From an uncultured delta proteobacterium (lineage in GTDB: Bacteria > Desulfobacterota > Syntrophia > Syntrophales > Fen-1087): a stretch of 64,000 nucleotides of DNA. Below, in pieces: positions 3,858-36,676 of the stretch (its first letter is position 1; each line of letters starts with the position of its first letter). The stretch spans positions 257,323-321,322 of the forward strand of contig CAVUOQ010000012.1 of the NCBI GenBank assembly GCA_963743175.1, given 5' to 3'. A program made the position numbers and the translations under genes. Below the pieces are notes generated by a model. It worked only from the letters and a program-made list of their open reading frames with translations, did no database searches and was not told the origin of the DNA.

Positions 3858-5553
3858 ATGGACAAGAAGTCCCTTATTGCCATTGTTTTGTCTATTCTGG
3901 TGGTTTTTATCTACCAGACGTATTTTGCACCACCGCGGCCACCCAAACAGCCGGACCCCACAATCAAGGAAACCCCCGCAGCGCCGGATGCCAAGCAGGT
4001 TATGGCGCCCGCGACCGGCTGCCAAGCAGACCATGGCAGCCGCGCCGGAACGGAAAGCGCCGGCCTTGGCCAAAGCCAAACCGGCCGCTGTGCCGGTAGT
4101 CATCCCGGAAAAAGAGATCACCGTCGATGCCAAACTCTACAGGGCCGTTTTTACGACGAAAGGCGCTGTGCTGAAATCGTTCAAATTAAAGGACTACCGC
4201 AAAACACCGGCCAAAGATGCGGAATTGATCGAACTGGTCCGGATCAAAGAGGGCATGCCCGGACCGCTTGGCATGACCTTTTCCGAATCCGATATCGCTA
4301 TCCCCGCCGACGGAATGTATGAAACGGACACCACGGCTCTGGACCTGAGCAAGGCACCCGAGCGGAACCGTTTGACGCTTTCCCGGACCTATCCCGATCA
4401 GATAAAAGTGGAAAAGATTTATACGTTCAATCCGTCCGGGTATAACTTGGAACTGGAGGTCCGGGTTTACAATCTCTCCGGCGCCCCCATCAACCAGAAC
4501 GCCCTGTTGAGCTGGCACGAATATGTGGATCCCAAGGCCAAGACGGACAGCTACACCCACGAAGGCCCCGTGATCTTTGTCGCAAAAAGCGTCGAACGCG
4601 AAGAGGTCAAGAACATCACCAAGGAAAAAAGCTTCGGACCGGACGTGTCCTGGGGCGGATTCGAAACCAAGTACTTCATCGCCGCGATGATCCCCCAGAA
4701 TCCGTCGCTGACCAGCCTCGTTGTGTCTCAGGACAGCCGGAATATGGTTTCCACGAGCCTGAAAGGCCCGAAACATCTGATCCCCGCCGGGCAGGCCGGG
4801 TCGTTCAGTTACACGCTTTTCCTCGGTCCGAAGGATCACAGCATCCTCAAGGCCCTGGGCGTCGGCCTGGAAGACGCCATCGACTTTGGATCATGGATGA
4901 AGTGGCTGGCCATGCCGATGCTTGTTATCCTCAAGTATATCAACAACTTCGTAAATAATTACGGCATCACGATCATCATCCTGACGATCCTGATCAAAAT
5001 CGCCTTCTGGCCCTTGGGAAACAAGAGCTACAAATCCATGAAGGAAATGCAGAAACTGCAACCCAAACTCCTGGAACTTCGCGAAAAGTATAAGGGCGAC
5101 AAGCAGAAAATCGGTCAGGAGACCATGGCCATGTACAAGACCCACAAGGTGAATCCCCTGGGGGGATGTCTTCCCATGGTGGTTCAGATCCCCGTCTTTT
5201 TCGGTCTTTACAAAACCCTGCTGTATGCCATCGAACTCCGCCATGCTCCATTATTCTTGTGGATACAAGATCTGTCAGCACCCGATACACTCTTCGGACA
5301 CATACCATCATGGATTCCTTTAATCGGAGGCTTTGCCCTGGGTCCATTACCCATAGTCATGGGGGCCACCATGTTCATCCAGCAGAAGATGAGCCCGCCT
5401 GCCGGCGATCCCATGCAGCAGAAAGTCATGCTCATCATGCCGGTGGTCTTTACGTTTCTCTTCCTGGACTTTCCCTCGGGGCTGGTCATCTACTGGCTGT
5501 TCAACAATATCCTGAGCATCGGCCAGCAATACTACATCCTGAAAAAAAAGTAA
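3858..5553 (+). pseudogene. yidC: membrane protein insertase YidC, N-terminal anchor in a different frame from the body
   Basis: The insertase core (..WPLGNKSYKSMKEMQKLQP..PLGGCLPMVVQIPVFFGLY..) is in ORF 3877..5553. The expected N-terminal signal anchor MDKKSLIAIVLSILVVFIYQ is in ORF 3858..4322. The frames meet around 4005-4020. Confidence 0.9.
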
Positions 5554-5570
5554 CTTGAGGAGAGGTTAAA

Positions 5571-6316
5571 ATGGAAACTCTCGAAATTGAAGGTAAAATC
5601 AATAGATGAGGCCATCGAAAAAGCCTGTCGCGACTTCGGCGTTTCGCGGGACAAACTGAACATCGAGATCCTTTCGGACGGATCATCCGGCTTCCTGGGG
5701 CTCATGGGCGCCAGAAAGGCCAGGATCAAAGCCGGTCTGCTTTCCATTGATGCGACCCTGAACATGACGCCCGCGCCGCCGCAACCGGAAACAACAGAAA
5801 AAATGCCGGAAGCGGACATCACCCCGGCTGCATTCGACCCGTCCGCCCGCGGCAGACGGCGCCGGGCTCGGCGAGCGGGCCAAGGCTGTTCTGGAGGGCA
5901 TTCTGGCTCATATGGGCATTGCCGCACCGGTCAGCGTTGAAGAAACGGAGGAATCGATCCTGCTGAATATCAAGGGCGATGGCGGCGGCCTGATCATCGG
6001 GCGACGCGGCCAGAATCTCGATGCGATTCAATACATTGTCAACAAGGCGGCAAACCGGTCCATCGATGGACGGAAGATGATTATTATCGACACCGAGGCC
6101 TATCGTAAAAGACGGGAAGAATCCCTGGTCACCCTGGCCGAGAAGTTAGGCGAGAAGGTCAAGAAAACAAAAAAGGCCGTCACCGTCAGTCATATGAATG
6201 CCCATGACCGCCGGATCATTCACATGGCGCTGCAGAACGACGAGTCGCTGACCACCAGAAGCAGGGGCGAAGGGGAATACCGGAAGATCGTCATCATTCC
6301 GGCGAAAAAGAATTAA
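5571..6316 (+). pseudogene. jag: Jag/KhpB-type RNA-binding protein (Jag_N + KH + R3H), two frame disruptions
   Basis: ATG 5571 follows the RBS GAGGAGAGG and gives METLEIEGK. After the A4 run 5595-5598, frame +1 gives KSIDEAIEKACRDFGVSRDKLNIEILSDGSSGFLGL. The KH/R3H part (GRRGQNLDAIQYIV.., HMNAHDRRIIHMAL) is in ORF 5912..6316, whose frame is open upstream to about 5822. Confidence 0.75.
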
Positions 6317-6322
6317 AATAAT

Positions 6323-6487
6323 AGCATTTTGCATCACTGCTGAAAAATGGTTCGCAAGCGGCGAATCAAATGTTTTCCGCCTTTCCAGAGAAAATGTTAA
6401 CGGGTTGTGAGATATCATGATTTTATCTCGTCGTCTTCTTAGCGGAAAAGATTTTTGAGCCGCGGCGAAGCCATTTTTCAAGGTCTC
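6323..6487 (+). repeat. long-hairpin intergenic repeat, family 1, copy A
   Basis: ..TTTTGCATCACTGCTGAAAAATGGTTCGCAAGCGGCGAATCAAATGTTTTCCGC...AGCGGAAAAGATTTTTGAGCCGCGGCGAAGCCATTTTTCAAGGTCTC. The two halves are imperfect reverse complements. Four more copies occur in this window. Confidence 0.8.
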
Positions 6488-6492
6488 AATAA

Positions 6493-23766: not shown

Positions 23767-24843
23767 ATGCCCAGACGGACAAAATCCAGATCAAAAAAGG
23801 CGGGTTTGCTGCCGGGATCCCTGGTCCATATCGGCGAAAAATTGAGTGACACCTCGAAGGTCACGCTGATCGATTATGACGGGGATCACCATCTTGAAAA
23901 AAACATTGATCAGATTGAAGAGCTGCGCGCTTTCAAGGACCTGCAGACGGTTTCCTGGGTGCATATCGAAGGCATTCACGATACCCGCGTCCTGGAACAG
24001 CTGGGCGATGTATTCGGGCTTCACCCCCTCATCATGGAGGATATCCTGAACACGGATCAGCGCCCCAAAATTCAGGACATGGGCGACTATATGTTCATCG
24101 TCCTCAAACGATTCTGCAATACCTGCGATGAACACAGCGATATCTCGGCGGAGCAGATCAGCGTCGTCCTGGGACCTAATTATGTGATCTCCTTTCAGGA
24201 ACGGGCAGACACCCTGCTCGATCCGATACGCGAGCACATCAAGACATCCAAGGGACGGATCCGCAAAGCCGGCGCCGATTATCTGGCTTATTCCATCGTC
24301 GATATGGTTCTCGATTCCTATTTCGGCATTCTCGAAACGCTGGGCGACAAAATCGAGATTGAGGAGGAGGCCCTGGTAAATAACCCCAAGCCGGCCACAT
24401 TACGGGTTATCCAGCATCTGAAGCGGGACATGATCTTTCTGAGGAAATCGATCTGGCCGTTGCGGGAGACCATCAGCGCTCTCGAGCGCAGTGAATCACC
24501 GTTGATTCAGGACACAACGAGCGTCTACCTGAAGGACATCTACGACCATGCCATCCAGGTCATCGACACCGTGGAAACCTACCGGGAGATACTCTCCGGC
24601 ATGATTGATATTTACCTGTCCAGCATCAGCAACCGGATGAACCAGGTCATGAAGGTGCTCACCATCATCGCCACGATTTTCATGCCCATGACCTTCCTGG
24701 CGGGCGTCTACGGGATGAACTTCAAGCATCTCCCGGAGCTTGAATGGCACTGGGGTTATCTGTTCTTCTGGATGATTAACCTGACCATCGCCGTAGTCAT
24801 GTTGATTCTTCTTCAAACGAAAAAAATGGCTCTGATCCTTTGA
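23767..24843 (+). CDS. corA: magnesium/cobalt transporter CorA
   Basis: C-terminal two TM helices with GVYGMNF. Confidence 0.9.
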   Translation: MPRRTKSRSKKAGLLPGSLVHIGEKLSDTSKVTLIDYDGDHHLEKNIDQIEELRAFKDLQTVSWVHIEGIHDTRVLEQLGDVFGLHPLIMEDILNTDQRPKIQDMGDYMFIVLKRFCNTCDEHSDISAEQISVVLGPNYVISFQERADTLLDPIREHIKTSKGRIRKAGADYLAYSIVDMVLDSYFGILETLGDKIEIEEEALVNNPKPATLRVIQHLKRDMIFLRKSIWPLRETISALERSESPLIQDTTSVYLKDIYDHAIQVIDTVETYREILSGMIDIYLSSISNRMNQVMKVLTIIATIFMPMTFLAGVYGMNFKHLPELEWHWGYLFFWMINLTIAVVMLILLQTKKMALIL

Positions 24844-24947: not shown

Positions 24948-25430
24948 ATGAGTGTTTTTACAGCCAGCGACATTGTTGAATTTGCCATCAGAATTGAAGA
25001 GAACGGGGCCAATTTTTACCGGTTTGCCGTGCAGATCGCCAAGGATGAAGGCACGAAAACCCTTTTTGACCAGTTAGCGAACGCCGAACTCCACCACAAG
25101 AAGACTTTCGAAAAAATCTTTGCGGCGATGGATAAGGACGCCCCGCCCGAGAGTTACACCGGAGAATACGCCGCCTATCTGCATAATTACGTCGATAACG
25201 CCATCATCTTCAAAAAAGAGACGCTGGACCAGGAACTGACGAAAGTCAAGGATTCGGCCTCAGCGCTGGATTTCGCCCTTCAGCGCGAGATGGATTCTAT
25301 TTTGTACTATCACGAAATCAAGGGACTCGTCCCCGCCCATGAACATGCCACGGTCGATAAAATCATCGAAGAAGAACGCAGGCATGTAGCCATGCTCTCG
25401 GCCATGAAACAGAAGCAATACGGCTGCTGA
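24948..25430 (+). CDS. ferritin-like (rubrerythrin-type four-helix bundle) protein
   Basis: IEENGANFY, AELHHKK, REMDSILYYHE and EERRH metal-ligand-like pairs. Confidence 0.8.
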   Translation: MSVFTASDIVEFAIRIEENGANFYRFAVQIAKDEGTKTLFDQLANAELHHKKTFEKIFAAMDKDAPPESYTGEYAAYLHNYVDNAIIFKKETLDQELTKVKDSASALDFALQREMDSILYYHEIKGLVPAHEHATVDKIIEEERRHVAMLSAMKQKQYGC

Positions 25431-25461: not shown

Positions 25462-26826
<1,365 letters not shown>

Positions 26827-26875: not shown

Positions 26876-28759
26876 TTACCCTCTTTCCGCCGGCAGAACG
26901 ATTTCAAAGGTCGTCCCCGACCCCTGATCGCTGAAGACAAGGATTTCGCCGCTGTGTCCTCGGATGATCTCATGCGCAAGCGAAAGTCCCAGGCCCAGGC
27001 CCTTTTCCTTCGTCGTATATTCGGGGCTGAAGATGCGCTCCACTTCCTCGGCGGTCATGCCGCATCCCGTATCGGCGATCTTGACGCTGATTTTCTCTCT
27101 GGACTTCCTTTCCACGGCAATATCGATCGCCCCCCCGCTATCGATCGATTCCATTGCATTTTTTATGATATTCAGCAGCGCCTGCTGGAGCTTGTCCATA
27201 TCCATCGGCACGACGGTCCCGTCACTTCCCCAATGAGTGCGGATTTGAATGCCCTTGGCGGCGGCCTCTTCCCGGAGCAGGTTTACGATTTTCTGCAGCA
27301 CCTCGGTCACCGGGTAATCGTGAAACTCCAGCCGCCGGCTCTTCGAAAACGTCAGAAACTCCTCTATGATCCCGTTCAAACGCCGGATTTCGTCCCGAAT
27401 GACGCCTGCCAGCGATTGAAATTCTTTCGCCTTGGTTTCATCGGCCGGCAGAAATTCACGCTTCAGCCTCTGACTGGCCATGCTGACGGCGTTGAGCGGG
27501 TTGCGGATTTCATGGGCCACCCCGGCGGCAAGCTGGCCCAACACAGACAGACGCTCCGCCTTGTCCAGTTGTCTTTCCATCTCCACAATGCCCGCCAGAT
27601 GCCGGTTCTGATTATGGAACAACAGCCACATGGCCAACAGGGCAATCAGGACGATCAGTATGGAAAAAATGTACATATTTCTCCGGTTTTCTTCAAGAAT
27701 TCGGTCCATGCTCTCCCGCTCCAGGCCGATCCGGACAATGCCGGCAATTTTGTCATTCATGACAAAGGGCGCCGCCATGTCGAGCAGGCTCCTGCCTGAG
27801 TGGACGACCTTTCGGCTTTCAATCTTCCGTTTGCCGGCCCAGATTTCCGACAGCGGCATATCTCCTGCCCGCCATTTCTCCGGTACGCTTCCCGTAGCGC
27901 CGAGGATCGCACCCTGTTCATCCGTAATAACGACATACGCGAACCCCTGGCTCTGACCTTCCCCTAACTTTTCAAGGGCCTTTTCAATAGATACCTTGGT
28001 TCCCCAGTACTTCAGTTGTTCTCGATCCAGGGCAATCAGGATTGTGCCGCTGCCATCCCTGCGCTTGAGTCCGATATAACCAATGCTCAAGCGGTCAAGG
28101 GTCTCAACCAGTGTCAAGGGAATGTCCTGACGGCCGACACCCGAACTGCTTCTGACCTCGGAAGCGGACAGCACCGCTTGCCGGTAAAAATCAAGCTGCG
28201 TGACGAGTTGGGTGAAAAGACCGATGCCGATGTCTTTTTCCGTTTCTTTGATTTTAACGGCCGATCGCTGTACGGTTTGCCTGGCCGGCAGCGACCGGCT
28301 CTGGTAAACGACCCCCCCCTTGGCATTTAGAACGGCCACCATCCATAATCCTTTGTCAACGGCGAATTTCTGCAGGTATTCATCGCTGATCCGATTGGCC
28401 TTCCAGGCTTCATCGATTTCCAGCCCCAGATCGGCAAGTGCGATTGTCAGCATTTTCTGGGGTGAAAAGGCGGCATCCTTGAGAGGAACGTAGGACCTCT
28501 CCCGATCCCGCTGAAAGGCCTGAACCAGATTGTTCAGGTTATCCTGAGACAGTCGTTGAACAACGCCGACAATGCTCATGGCCTGATTCTGCATGAATCC
28601 CACAAGAATCCGGTTGCTGCGCTGGAGATCCATGACTCCCATGATCAGGATCAGGGCAATGAATACGGCGCAGACGATCGCGACGGCAATCGGCTGGAGG
28701 AAAAACCGGTCTTCCGGCCGGGAGTGGTACTGCCAGATCTTTTTCTTGTACGGACTCAT
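26876..28759 (-). CDS. sensor histidine kinase
   Basis: Two TM segments flank a large extracytoplasmic region. H-box VAHEIRNPLNAV. HATPase_c motifs DTGCGM and GLGLSLAHEII. Confidence 0.9.
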   Translation of the reverse strand: MSPYKKKIWQYHSRPEDRFFLQPIAVAIVCAVFIALILIMGVMDLQRSNRILVGFMQNQAMSIVGVVQRLSQDNLNNLVQAFQRDRERSYVPLKDAAFSPQKMLTIALADLGLEIDEAWKANRISDEYLQKFAVDKGLWMVAVLNAKGGVVYQSRSLPARQTVQRSAVKIKETEKDIGIGLFTQLVTQLDFYRQAVLSASEVRSSSGVGRQDIPLTLVETLDRLSIGYIGLKRRDGSGTILIALDREQLKYWGTKVSIEKALEKLGEGQSQGFAYVVITDEQGAILGATGSVPEKWRAGDMPLSEIWAGKRKIESRKVVHSGRSLLDMAAPFVMNDKIAGIVRIGLERESMDRILEENRRNMYIFSILIVLIALLAMWLLFHNQNRHLAGIVEMERQLDKAERLSVLGQLAAGVAHEIRNPLNAVSMASQRLKREFLPADETKAKEFQSLAGVIRDEIRRLNGIIEEFLTFSKSRRLEFHDYPVTEVLQKIVNLLREEAAAKGIQIRTHWGSDGTVVPMDMDKLQQALLNIIKNAMESIDSGGAIDIAVERKSREKISVKIADTGCGMTAEEVERIFSPEYTTKEKGLGLGLSLAHEIIRGHSGEILVFSDQGSGTTFEIVLPAERG

Positions 28760-28874
28760 AAAACCCTCAGAATATGATAAAAAGCAAGGTCAGCATGATA
28801 GGTCATAATGGTAAAAAGTCAATGAATTCTTGATCTGCTTCACCACCCGTTTCATGAAGCGTGATGCGTATCTC

Positions 28875-29043
28875 GAGACCTTTGAAAAATGGACAACGCC
28901 CGCGTCTTAAAAATATTTTCTGCTAAGAAGACGACCAGGCGTAATCATGATTCATGACAAGCCGTTAACGTAATCGCTGGAAAGGCGGAAAACATTTGAT
29001 TCGCCGCTTGCGAACCATTTTTCAGCGATTATGCAAAGCTCTC
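28875..29043 (-). repeat. long-hairpin intergenic repeat, family 1, copy B (inverted)
   Basis: Reverse complement of the copy at 36482-36648 with a few mismatches. Confidence 0.8.
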
Positions 29044-29163
29044 ATCTTGTACATCGACAATTCTGTCGATTCGAGAACCATTCCTGTCTATCAAGTAACA
29101 AATCGTTATTATTTGATTATTTTTTTATTCCTCCCTGACGGTCCGACAATCTTTGCCTGATTC

Positions 29164-29186
29164 GCATCCTGGACCTGATAGGATGC
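29164..29186 (+). promoter_or_regulatory. perfect inverted repeat GCATCCT-N9-AGGATGC, candidate enhancer (UAS) site
   Basis: Lies about 60 nt upstream of the -24/-12 element, with an AT-rich tract between them. Confidence 0.35.
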
Positions 29187-29247
29187 TCTAAGCGAAAATA
29201 CACAATATCTCTTTGATAACAGAAACTTATAAATCATTATCCGTCAG

Positions 29248-29263
29248 TGGCACAGGATGTGCA
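29248..29263 (+). promoter_or_regulatory. candidate sigma-54 (-24/-12) promoter TGGCAC-AGGAT-GTGCA
   Basis: GG (29249-50) and GC (29261-62) are 12 nt apart, close to the consensus TGGCAC-N5-TTGCA. An adjacent gene encodes a GAFTGA activator. Confidence 0.5.
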
Positions 29264-29273
29264 GATAAAGTTG

Positions 29274-29400
29274 TACAGAAAATGTCCTGCCGGTTAAGCA
29301 AACGGGCATGTTTATTCGGCAGTCGAATCCAAAGCTTCAGAAGGCGAAAAGCCTTCATCACTCCTGAATCAGGGGGAGGTCAACGACCTCCCTTTTTTTT
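29274..29400 (+). ncRNA. candidate sigma-54-dependent small RNA (about 125 nt)
   Basis: Bounded by the -24/-12 element and an intrinsic terminator. Internal hairpin GAAGGC-GAAAA-GCCTTC (29340-29356). No RBS-preceded ORF ends before the terminator. Confidence 0.4.
29372..29400 (+). terminator. Rho-independent terminator
   Basis: GGGAGGTC-AAC-GACCTCCC followed by T8. Confidence 0.65.
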
Positions 29401-29441
29401 GTTGAAAAGGCGCTCATCCGCCCTGTCCGCATCATTATATC

Positions 29442-29607
29442 GAGAGATTTACATCACCGGTGAAAAATGGTTCGCAAGCGGTGAATCAAAGATTTTTCGA
29501 CTTCCCAGAAATTAGATTAATTTATTGATTTCAATCATATTTATGCATTATCATCTCTTAAGCGAAAAAGATGTTGAGCCGCGGCGAAGCCGTTTTTCAA
29601 AGGGTTC
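29442..29607 (+). repeat. long-hairpin intergenic repeat, family 1, copy C (most diverged)
   Basis: ..GGTGAAAAATGGTTCGCAAGCGGTGAATCAAAGATTTTTCGA...AGCGAAAAAGATGTTGAGCCGCGGCGAAGCCGTTTTTCAAAGGGTTC. Confidence 0.75.
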
Positions 29608-29610
29608 ATA

Positions 29611-30948
29611 TCAGGGTTTTCGCTTTTCACGCAGCTTCCGCCACTGATCCATTCTTTCCCGGATGATTTTCTCATAACCCCTCTCTGTCGGGCTATAGTA
29701 AGATTGCCCCTTCAGGGACTCCGGCAGGTAGTCCTGGGGGATGTAGGCGTCTTCAAAATCGTGGGCATAGAGATAGCCCTTGCCGTAGCCGAGATCCTTC
29801 ATGAGCCCCGTGGGTGCATTGCGGATATGCAGCGGTACGGGTAGCGTGCCGGTACGACCGATGGTTTCCTTGACCCGGCCATAGCCTCTGTAAAGAGCGT
29901 TGCTTTTTGAGGCCGTGGCCAGATACACGGCTGCCTGGGCCAGGGCCAGCTCCCCTTCGGGAAGTCCGATAAACTGGAATGCCTGCATCGCCGAGACGCA
30001 GAGCGTCAGCGCCCTCGGATCGGCATTTCCCACATCCTCCGAGGCAAAGCGGACCATCCGGCGGGCAATAAAAAGGGGGTCTTCGCCGGCGGCCAGCATC
30101 CGGCCCAACCAGTAAAGGGCGGCATCCGGATCGGATCCCCGGAGGCTTTTATGGAAGGCCGAGATCAGGTTATAGTGCTCCTCTCCGCCTTTGTCATAGA
30201 GCAGAAATTTCTTCTGAAAGGCTTCCTCGACAACACTGCGGGTTATTTTTCTTTCGCCATCGTGCCCCGTATCGACCAGGGAGGCCACTGCTTCCATGGT
30301 GTTCAGTGCCGTGCGGGCGTCGCCGTCGGCGGACCAGACAATGGCCGACAGGGCTTCCTGCTCAACATCGAGGCTCAAGGCGCCCAGCCCCCGTTCATCG
30401 TCCGCAACCGCCCTTTTCAGGATCAATGAAAGGTCGTCATCGGAAAAGGGTTTCAGGAGCATGACCCGCGAGCGGGACAACAGCGGGGCGATGATTTCAA
30501 AGGAGGGATTTTCGGTGGTGGCGCCGATCAACGTGATCAGGCCGCTTTCCACGTGCGGCAGAAAGGCATCCTGCTGGGCCTTGTTGAAACGATGGATTTC
30601 ATCGACGAAAAGGAGCGTTTTTACCCGGTGATCCCGCCACTGTGTCCGGGCCTCATCCACGACGGAACGGATCTCCTTCACCCCGGACAACACTGCGGAA
30701 AAGCTGACGAAATGTGACTGTGTTTCCCGTGCGATCACTCTGGCCAGGGTCGTCTTGCCGGAGCCCGGCGGACCCCAGAAAATCATGGAAAAAAGGCGGT
30801 CCTCTTCAATAGCGCGACGGAGCAGGCCTCCTTCACCCAGCAAATGCGGCTGTCCCACGTATTCCGCAAGGGTGCGCGGCCGCATCCGGTCCGCCAGCGG
30901 CCGGGGATCATCACCGCTTTTCGTTTCCTGTTGGTCAAAAAGATCCAT
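29611..30948 (-). CDS. rarA: replication-associated recombination protein A (AAA+ ATPase)
   Basis: GPPGSGKTTLA, LFVDEIHRFNK, and the C-terminal MgsA domain. Start at MDLFDQQ (30948), because the upstream part of ORF 29611..31035 runs into repeat D. Confidence 0.9.
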   Translation of the reverse strand: MDLFDQQETKSGDDPRPLADRMRPRTLAEYVGQPHLLGEGGLLRRAIEEDRLFSMIFWGPPGSGKTTLARVIARETQSHFVSFSAVLSGVKEIRSVVDEARTQWRDHRVKTLLFVDEIHRFNKAQQDAFLPHVESGLITLIGATTENPSFEIIAPLLSRSRVMLLKPFSDDDLSLILKRAVADDERGLGALSLDVEQEALSAIVWSADGDARTALNTMEAVASLVDTGHDGERKITRSVVEEAFQKKFLLYDKGGEEHYNLISAFHKSLRGSDPDAALYWLGRMLAAGEDPLFIARRMVRFASEDVGNADPRALTLCVSAMQAFQFIGLPEGELALAQAAVYLATASKSNALYRGYGRVKETIGRTGTLPVPLHIRNAPTGLMKDLGYGKGYLYAHDFEDAYIPQDYLPESLKGQSYYSPTERGYEKIIRERMDQWRKLREKRKP

Positions 30949-31000
30949 AATAAAAGAGATTCTGTTTACGTCGCACTTGTAGAAATAAATTCGATTTCCC

Positions 31001-31168
31001 GAGACTTTCGTAAAAATGGCTTTGCCGCGACTCAAAAATCTTTTCCGCTAAGAGGACAACCAAGCGCAATCATGATTCAGGACAAACCGTTAACGTCATT
31101 TCTGGAAAGGCGGAAAACATTTGATTCGCCGCTTGCAAACCATTTTTCATCAGTTAAGCAAAGCCCTC
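31001..31168 (-). repeat. long-hairpin intergenic repeat, family 1, copy D (inverted)
   Basis: GAGACTTTCGTAAAAATGGCTTTGCCGCGACTCAAAAATCTTTTCCGCTAAGAGG...GGAAAACATTTGATTCGCCGCTTGCAAACCATTTTTCA. Confidence 0.8.
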
Positions 31169-36481: not shown

Positions 36482-36648
36482 GAGAGTTTTGCATAACCGC
36501 TGAAAAATGGTTCGCAGGCGGCGAATCAAATGTTTTCCGCTTTTCCAGAGATTACGTTAGCGACTTGTCATGAATCATGAATACGTCTGGTCGTCCTCTT
36601 AGCGGAAAAGATTTTTGAGACGCGGCGAAGCCATTTTTCAAAGGTCTC
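36482..36648 (+). repeat. long-hairpin intergenic repeat, family 1, copy E
   Basis: GAGAGTTTTGCATAACCGCTGAAAAATGGTTCGCAGGCGGCGAATCAAATGTTTTCCGC...AGCGGAAAAGATTTTTGAGACGCGGCGAAGCCATTTTTCAAAGGTCTC. Confidence 0.8.
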
Positions 36649-36676
36649 TGGACTGTCGCATCCAGAAGGAGGCTTT

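Follow-up and report, generated by a model that had tools for sequence, protein, structure and literature searches.

A candidate sigma-54-dependent small RNA gene divergent from a histidine kinase/activator operon in Syntrophales

What does a histidine kinase with a sigma-54 activator control, when the divergent strand next to it carries what looks like a sigma-54 promoter but no evident gene? The question is raised by a locus of an uncultured Syntrophales bacterium on contig CAVUOQ010000012.1 (assembly GCA_963743175.1), of which a stretch of 64,000 nucleotides (nt; contig positions 257,323 to 321,322) was analysed and is called the window here. The intergenic region in question (28760-29610, 851 nt) is bordered by the histidine kinase gene on one side and by the 3' end of rarA/mgsA on the other, and an original prediction made from the DNA letters placed in it a sigma-54-dependent small RNA (sRNA) of about 125 nt as the direct output of the kinase/activator operon. 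Our computational analysis, which found conservation of the synteny, the promoter, the enhancer sites, the RNA structure and the terminator but of no open reading frame (ORF), supports such an RNA as local output of the divergent operon through the synteny, the covariation and the lack of both a conserved ORF and an Rfam match. We put the probability that the interval holds a real activator- and sigma-54-dependent sRNA gene at roughly three in four.

The candidate promoter, TGGCAC-AGGAT-GTGCA (TGGCACAGGATGTGCA), lies on the plus strand at 29248-29263, has one mismatch to TGGCAC-N5-TTGCW and sets the predicted transcription start at about 29274. From there the putative sRNA gene runs to 29400 on the same strand (about 127 nt). 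Its predicted RNA begins with an A-rich tail and continues with hairpin 1 (29287-29322), which presents the invariant loop CGGGCAUG at 29303-29310, an A-rich linker, hairpin 2 (GAAGGC-GAAAA-GCCTTC, 29340-29356), the single-stranded segment CACUCCUGA (29359-29367; family consensus UCCUCCUG) and the intrinsic terminator GGGAGGTC-AAC-GACCTCCC with U8 (29374-29400), all on the plus strand. The terminator, which a terminator scan also reports, consists of an 8-bp G+C-rich stem with a 3-nt loop (29374-29392) and T8 at 29393-29400. The promoter, the GAAGGC/GCCTTC hairpin and the terminator of the original prediction are all found at these places. The segment 29270-29400 (131 nt) folds better than 200 out of 200 shuffles (z = -3.7). 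On the strand of the RNA no gene follows, because rarA (29611-30948, minus strand) converges on the terminator; with its own promoter, an intrinsic terminator and a convergent next gene, the element has the layout of an independent transcription unit.

About 50 orthologous loci were compared. Loci L001-L080 were fetched through a genome scan with kinase alignment, among whose listed matches no relative exceeded 58% kinase identity, and the closer relatives L081-L094 from exact look-ups of kinase homologues. The kinase homologues were drawn from metagenome-assembled genomes of Syntrophus, Smithella, Syntrophaceae and Syntrophales. In methanogenic systems, relatives of Syntrophus and Smithella have a key part in the syntrophic degradation of fatty acids and alkanes; they are hard to grow. 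The order rarA, intergenic region, kinase, activator is kept in relatives with 44-98% kinase identity, and in all relatives down to approximately 51% kinase identity YGGCAY-N5-xTGC stands in the same position, on the strand opposite to the kinase, and the 107-130 nt behind it are conserved and close with a G+C-rich hairpin and a run of U. Both the -24/-12 element and the hairpins are kept beside orthologous regulators, with the qualification that a short subtype of about 107 nt is missing hairpin 2. Promoter and RNA occupy the same place in the 18 loci reached through the kinase. In alignment A4, of 18 sequences, 91.8% of the cells are paired and 14 of 26 pairs have changed on both sides, a result matched by none of 500 shuffles and far from the 35-57% of paired cells in slid controls. 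A second alignment (A6) was obtained from a metagenome scan seeded with a 19-nt pattern from the RNA itself, which gave 52 matches, 32 of them true family members representing 21 distinct sequences; here 91.4% of the cells are paired and nine pairs have changed on both sides (none of 500 shuffles reached this; slid controls 39-55%). Covariation is present in all three helices, and the terminator shows compensatory changes in its three apical pairs. A covariance search of the equivalent intergenic regions, which the original prediction had proposed, recovers the RNA: model R1 finds a single copy in the window (124.8 bits) and one in each related locus, including L005, which had been left out of training.

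The RNA belongs to none of the catalogued families that were searched. At gathering score, the 4227 Rfam models match nothing in 15 related loci and, in the window, nothing besides a transfer RNA; at E <= 10, the interval 28700-29700 gives chance-level matches to unrelated families only. The Qrr, GlmY/GlmZ, Pxr and CrcZ models are among the families that were not matched, and neither the window nor any locus holds extra copies of the RNA in the manner of Qrr1-5. It thus looks like a previously uncatalogued family of a known sort, that of sigma-54/activator-dependent sRNAs encoded beside their regulator.

The conserved block also extends upstream of the promoter. A distal enhancer, here called upstream activator sequence 1 (UAS1), is the palindrome CGACA-N4-TGTCG (CGACAATTCTGTCG) at 29055-29068, 193 nt upstream of TGGCAC and about 212 nt upstream of the predicted start; it is unique in the window (0.05 expected), and most loci, among them those of the ZraP type described below, have the motif between -188 and -194. 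It is likely the binding site of the activator. The proximal UAS2, the half-palindrome CGACA-N4-TTGCC (CGACAATCTTTGCC) at 29144-29157, is likewise unique in the window and lies 104 nt upstream of TGGCAC (about 123 nt upstream of the predicted start); nearly all sRNA loci have it between -103 and -105. A third element on the plus strand, TAACAGAAACTTA at 29217-29229, 31 nt upstream of TGGCAC, has two mismatches to WATCAANNNNTTR; a match to an AT-rich consensus only, it is suggestive of a site for integration host factor (IHF) between enhancer and promoter. Many orthologues have a WATCAANNNNTTR-like match with 0-2 mismatches at -30/-31, which in six loci (L004, L010, L011, L013, L081 and L091) is perfect. 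Counted from TGGCAC, the spacing -193/-104/-31 is maintained in nearly all loci. Identity to the window reaches 83-100% for UAS1, 75-88% for UAS2, 69-94% for the promoter and 69-90% for the RNA, as against 36-56% in the segments between these islands (76% and 96% in the two closest relatives) and 29-63% beyond the terminator. The original prediction had proposed a different activator site, GCATCCT-N9-AGGATGC at 29164-29186. The perfect inverted repeat is there, but as an activator site it was rejected, since it is not conserved: it is already broken in the intergenic alignment with the closest relative, L086, the surrounding region 29159-29216 shows 41-64% identity in all relatives except the closest, and the repeat is specific to the window and falls outside the conserved system.

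In the RNA-seeded metagenome set, all matches with upstream sequence have the promoter and both UAS at the fixed spacing, with the exception of L116, and every contig that reaches the next gene has a kinase orthologue divergent from the RNA. In L116 (400-800 of a 1.1-kb metagenome contig) the RNA is intact and a murC-like coding sequence replaces the sequence upstream of -12, which suggests either a chimeric assembly or a genuine rearrangement with loss of the -24 element. Two further contigs, L105 (954-1057 of 1058) and L125 (8797-8900 of 8901), end one base past the predicted 5' end of the RNA. These ends are likely assembly breaks, where conserved RNA meets strain-variable spacer, and are no evidence for a transcription start.

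The adjoining operon has the composition that the original prediction assigned to it. The sensor histidine kinase (26876-28759, minus strand, 627 amino acids (aa)) has a large periplasmic domain, with Pfam matches to HisKA and HATPase_c and a weak match to sCache_3_2. The response regulator (25462-26826, minus strand) has the REC-AAA+-HTH_8 architecture of a sigma-54 activator, with PF00158 (Sigma54_activat), the AAA+ sigma-54 interaction domain, at 1.6e-71; alignment with E. coli ZraR (49% identity) reveals the GHEKGAFTGA loop. Its start is placed at about 26826, which gives a protein of 454 aa that matches the orthologues, and not at the start of the 505-aa ORF.

Based on these features, we propose the following hypothetical sequence of events, which extends from what the comparison found to transcription, its dependence on sigma-54 and the activator, a contribution of IHF and a physiological role: (i) the kinase would phosphorylate its partner, the GAFTGA activator; (ii) the phosphorylated activator would bind UAS1 and UAS2 (29055-29068 and 29144-29157); (iii) IHF may bend the DNA at the site around -50; (iv) the activator would remodel the sigma-54 RNA polymerase on TGGCAC-N5-GTGCA; (v) transcription from about 29274 to the terminator would yield the RNA of about 127 nt; and (vi) this RNA would act in trans, pairing with the ribosome-binding sites of target messenger RNAs (mRNAs) and repressing their translation through a CU-rich segment that is accessible (ACUCCUG in the window, family consensus UCCUCCUG), possibly also through the CGGGCAUG loop. 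The last step draws on the two motifs that are both unpaired and conserved: the first loop displays CGGGCAUG, and (U)CCUCCUG stands in the stretch that separates hairpin 2 from the terminator. The complementarity of the latter to Shine-Dalgarno sequences makes trans pairing at ribosome-binding sites the most likely mode of action among those considered, and yet we hold an anti-Shine-Dalgarno mechanism only tentatively, at slightly less than even odds.

Several observations weigh against the proposal. The -24/-12 match by itself is within chance for 64 kb: the element at 29248-29263 is the sole match at up to one mismatch where 2.2 were expected, so that the case rests on the cross-genome comparison, and the start and ends of the RNA are predicted positions. 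In L094 no copy of the RNA lies within 4 kb of the kinase/activator orthologue. The CU-rich motif of the window, ACUCCUG, is one base weaker than the family motif CCUCCUG, and its resemblance to the 3' arm of the terminator could permit an alternative fold. CCUCC alone does not pick targets, because any strong Shine-Dalgarno sequence pairs with it. The searches for targets were likewise unfavourable: the sequence available yielded no specific mRNA target, no other place in the window carries the loop-motif complement, and duplex energies of the RNA with the translation start of the kinase were no better than those of shuffles in most loci, for which reason feedback pairing at that start was rejected.

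The L094 kinase (4001-5776, beside an activator 77% identical to that of the window) lies 13 nt behind an operon for thiolase, ferredoxin and 2-oxoacid:ferredoxin oxidoreductase, with no upstream intergenic region. As regards targets, the sole recurring match to the loop-motif complement in 1.18 Mb of fetched loci is the start of one syntenic acyl-CoA-synthetase-like gene (MPEKHLALM...), which lies at a distance of 5-6 kb from the RNA of the short type and begins AGGAG-N-(U)AUGCCCG, a sequence that can form about 8 bp with the invariant CGGGCAU(G) loop. The sites lie on the plus strand in L103 (6535), L112 (10137), L117 (9334), L127 (8292), L135 (9443) and L144 (9024) and on the minus strand in L125 (3081). 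This gene could be a target or a coincidence; we did not find it convincing, as the pairing extends over about 8 bp only and the copies, being orthologous, are not independent.

The same failure to find an mRNA target favours a different function for a real sigma-54-dependent RNA, namely protein binding or titration, or mimicry of the 3' end of 16S rRNA, in place of pairing with ribosome-binding sites. The 8-nt loop CGGGCAUG, conserved more strictly than a typical pairing seed, points the same way. However, the loops lack repeated GGA or other known protein-binding motifs, each motif is present in a single copy where sponge RNAs usually have many, and CCUCC recurs in the loops of structurally unrelated RNAs, as would suit a pairing seed. 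We therefore consider this alternative unlikely, although none of the others fares better. These RNAs are those of L006 (from about 3581 downwards, minus strand) and L018 (from about 2618 downwards, minus strand), with 44-45% kinase identity: behind the same promoter they fold differently, into two hairpins with CCUCC(UG) in both loops and with compensatory stem changes between these two loci. For regarding the motif as the functional core, the strongest argument is this recurrence of CCUCC in the loops of structurally unrelated RNAs that share the promoter.

The position of rarA suggests another role for the promoter, which might mainly drive convergent or antisense transcription into the 3' end of that gene, the RNA being just a leader and the regulation being exerted in cis through interference or antisense pairing. 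The rarA stop indeed lies about 30-50 nt past the terminator in relatives without the repeat insertion described below. Against this, the terminator is strong, conserved and covarying, conservation past it drops to the poor values given above, and the RNA is unchanged in L134, L118, L115 and L126, where rarA is not the neighbour, which leaves a cis-acting leader very improbable.

Translation of the transcript is less probable still. A small peptide could start at the AUG in the loop of hairpin 1 (29308-29310), which is nearly invariant and opens a frame of 19 aa in the window (MFIRQSNPKLQKA...) that is kept in close relatives. The 37 distinct members of the family share no conserved reading frame; counted from this AUG, the frame varies from 2 to 25 aa and most often has 4-5 aa, no Shine-Dalgarno sequence precedes the AUG, indels shift the frame, and substitutions preserve base pairs rather than codons. 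The reading as a small protein was rejected on these grounds. The only ORF that the original prediction had noted across the interval (29213-29515, 100 aa) exists and has no Pfam match.

A further explanation arises from more distant relatives, with 30-37% kinase and 57-67% activator identity, which belong to Desulfobacterales, Syntrophobacteraceae, Desulfosoma and Desulforhabdus. They share the architecture with its divergent sigma-54 promoter, in the order CGACA-N4-TGTCG site, usually a CGACA-N4-TTGCC site, then promoter. In most of these loci a gene for a small secreted protein of the ZraP/CpxP/Spy group follows 30-190 nt past the promoter (Pfam Metal_resist and LTXXQ; best NCBIfam match ZraP, below its cut-off), as in L012-L017, L019 and L025. 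L021 has three ZraP-like matches in tandem. By tblastn, neither the window nor the 4 kb around the RNA-type loci showed a ZraP-like coding sequence. The occurrence of such a coding sequence straight behind the same promoter scaffold might suggest that the conserved block is a functionless, decaying remnant of the untranslated region of a lost ZraP-like gene. The RNA has no sequence similarity to the leaders of ZraP-type loci, however, and it persists, with invariant loops and compensatory changes, across kinase divergence to about 51% identity, which indicates purifying selection; a remnant is scarcely credible.

Returning to a functional sRNA, we consider it possible, at less than even odds, that Syntrophales re-use for an sRNA with an anti-Shine-Dalgarno motif the scaffold that in Desulfobacterales and Syntrophobacterales serves a ZraP/CpxP-like protein. 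A switch of the output from protein to regulatory RNA, with the activator sites, the spacing and the promoter retained, is plausible, with the reservation that orthology is not proven. L010, L006 and L018 appear to be intermediate forms of such a switch. In L010 (45% kinase identity), a divergent sigma-54 transcript of approximately 185 nt containing UCUCCUCCUU is predicted (from about 3125 downwards, minus strand), and a ZraP-like gene also lies inside the kinase operon. Because the distant relatives place a ZraP/CpxP-like protein on the same scaffold, the regulon is probably an envelope or periplasmic stress response. In the window itself no further members of the regulon were detected, either as another CGACA-N4-TGTCG site or as another -24/-12 element. 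The genes downstream of the activator are not conserved among relatives. In the window they encode rubrerythrin and CorA (24948-25430 and 23767-24843), in some relatives a BKACE enzyme with an aminotransferase and in others Fur with a catalase-peroxidase (L089/L090, 7488-9965); this variable set might indicate a connection with metal or oxidative stress.

The remaining features of the intergenic region are a sigma-70-like promoter and two dispersed repeats. The former, TTGACT-16-TATCAT at 28795-28822 on the minus strand (10/12 in a consensus scan), would serve the kinase operon and lies in a block kept in orthologues. The latter bracket the promoter and the RNA as inverted repeats of 134 nt (28910-29043 and 29442-29575; 72% identity over 134 nt) that share a near-identical 29-nt core, TTGATTCGCCGCTTGCGAACCATTTTTCA. 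They are part of an element of about 170 nt that folds as one long imperfect palindrome and has five intergenic copies in the 64 kb: approximately 6322-6492, 28868-29042 (plus strand, between the kinase promoter and UAS1), 29443-29612 (inverted, minus strand, between the sRNA terminator and the rarA stop), 30992-31167 and 36483-36655. Some copies fill nearly the whole intergenic gap. The element has no Rfam match, resembles a miniature inverted-repeat transposable element or an enterobacterial repetitive intergenic consensus sequence and is unrelated to the RNA. Owing to the insertion of these repeats, the intergenic region measures 851 nt, compared with about 485-540 nt in most close relatives. 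The real inverted repeat with its near-identical core could make the module seem an artefact or the cargo of a mobile element, a reading that is refuted for practical purposes, as the arms are copies of a palindrome found elsewhere in the window and all orthologous loci have promoter and RNA without it. Other relatives carry lineage-specific intergenic insertions of their own, such as G+C-rich palindromes in L088 and extra sequence in L081, which always lie outside the block of UAS, promoter and RNA. The pattern suggests a hot spot for insertions whose core is protected.

Among known systems, the precedent named by the original prediction is Qrr1 of Vibrio, where phosphorylated LuxO, an NtrC-type regulator, activates a sigma-54 promoter beside its own gene, from which a trans-acting sRNA of about 100 nt ending in a terminator is made. 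The locus described here would likewise combine a sigma-54 promoter with a terminator-ended sRNA beside an NtrC-type regulator gene. It differs from Qrr in that no Rfam Qrr match is obtained at E <= 10, the conserved motifs are others, a single copy per locus replaces the multigene family, and feedback pairing with the mRNA of the regulator operon is not apparent. In E. coli, the sRNA gene glmY adjoins the operon for GlrK-GlrR, and its -24/-12 promoter is preceded by an IHF site and several sites for the activator; GlmY works by protein mimicry or titration in a cascade of two RNAs. The position next to a kinase/sigma-54 activator operon is shared, as is the presence of more than one putative activator site, whereas the RNA has no Rfam match to GlmY or GlmZ and both its sites and its structure differ. 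CpxQ, MicA and RybB are sRNAs of the envelope stress response, dependent on sigma-E or on CpxR with sigma-70, and CpxQ is physically linked to the cpxP gene. With these the proposed logic is common, in that an sRNA of a stress pathway would lower the synthesis of target proteins at ribosome-binding sites, but the loci are different, there is no homology, and the envelope role suggested here derives from the gene neighbourhood of distant relatives.

The ZraPSR system, in E. coli as well as in D. vulgaris (DVU3381-3384), resembles the locus in having a kinase and a sigma-54 activator, a divergent activator-dependent promoter and two upstream palindromes, and the ZraP-type loci of the distant relatives share the layout of E. 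coli zraP-zraSR and of D. vulgaris DVU3384-DVU3382/3381 (PMC3333781). In the window, in contrast, the divergent product would be an RNA and not ZraP, the sensor domain of the kinase is unrelated to that of ZraS, with only the kinase core aligning, and the binding motifs are distinct (GAGTAAAAATGACTCGC inverted repeats for E. coli ZraR, GTATA-N5-TATAC for D. vulgaris DVU3381 and CGACA-N4-TGTCG here). The proteins score below the NCBIfam cut-offs for ZraS (201.7; cut-off 479) and ZraR (469.5; cut-off 760), and AtoS/AtoC score higher than ZraS/ZraR, also below their own cut-offs. An assignment of the window system to ZraSR was rejected on account of the motifs, the sensor domain and these scores. 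We found no paper on an sRNA under ZraPSR control and none on small RNAs in Syntrophus or Smithella.

If confirmed, the replacement of a protein by an RNA on a fixed enhancer scaffold would be a clear natural case of output change in a two-component system and would point to an envelope-stress role for the RNA. The locus offers a ready, testable regulatory module of kinase, activator, two activator sites, sigma-54 promoter and sRNA, and the covariance model now detects the RNA in dozens of metagenome contigs. A further precedent is D. vulgaris, like the present host a member of the former Deltaproteobacteria, in which four non-coding RNAs (ncRNAs) dependent on sigma-54 and an activator adjoin their regulator genes (PMC4641369, PMC3333781), with Dv_sRNA2 located downstream of the response regulator DVU0679 and another ncRNA downstream of DVU0653 (PMC3333781, PMC4641369). 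The likeness is one of gene arrangement: a response regulator of the sigma-54 activator class has the ncRNA beside its gene as a local target, with palindromic sites upstream of a -24/-12 promoter. The DVU0679 motif CGTGCG-N4-CGCACG differs from CGACA-N4-TGTCG, and these two D. vulgaris ncRNAs lie downstream of the regulator, while the candidate RNA of this Syntrophales lineage lies divergently upstream of the kinase. As activator- and sigma-54-dependent sRNAs beside their regulators are well known, the present locus extends this pattern rather than breaking it.

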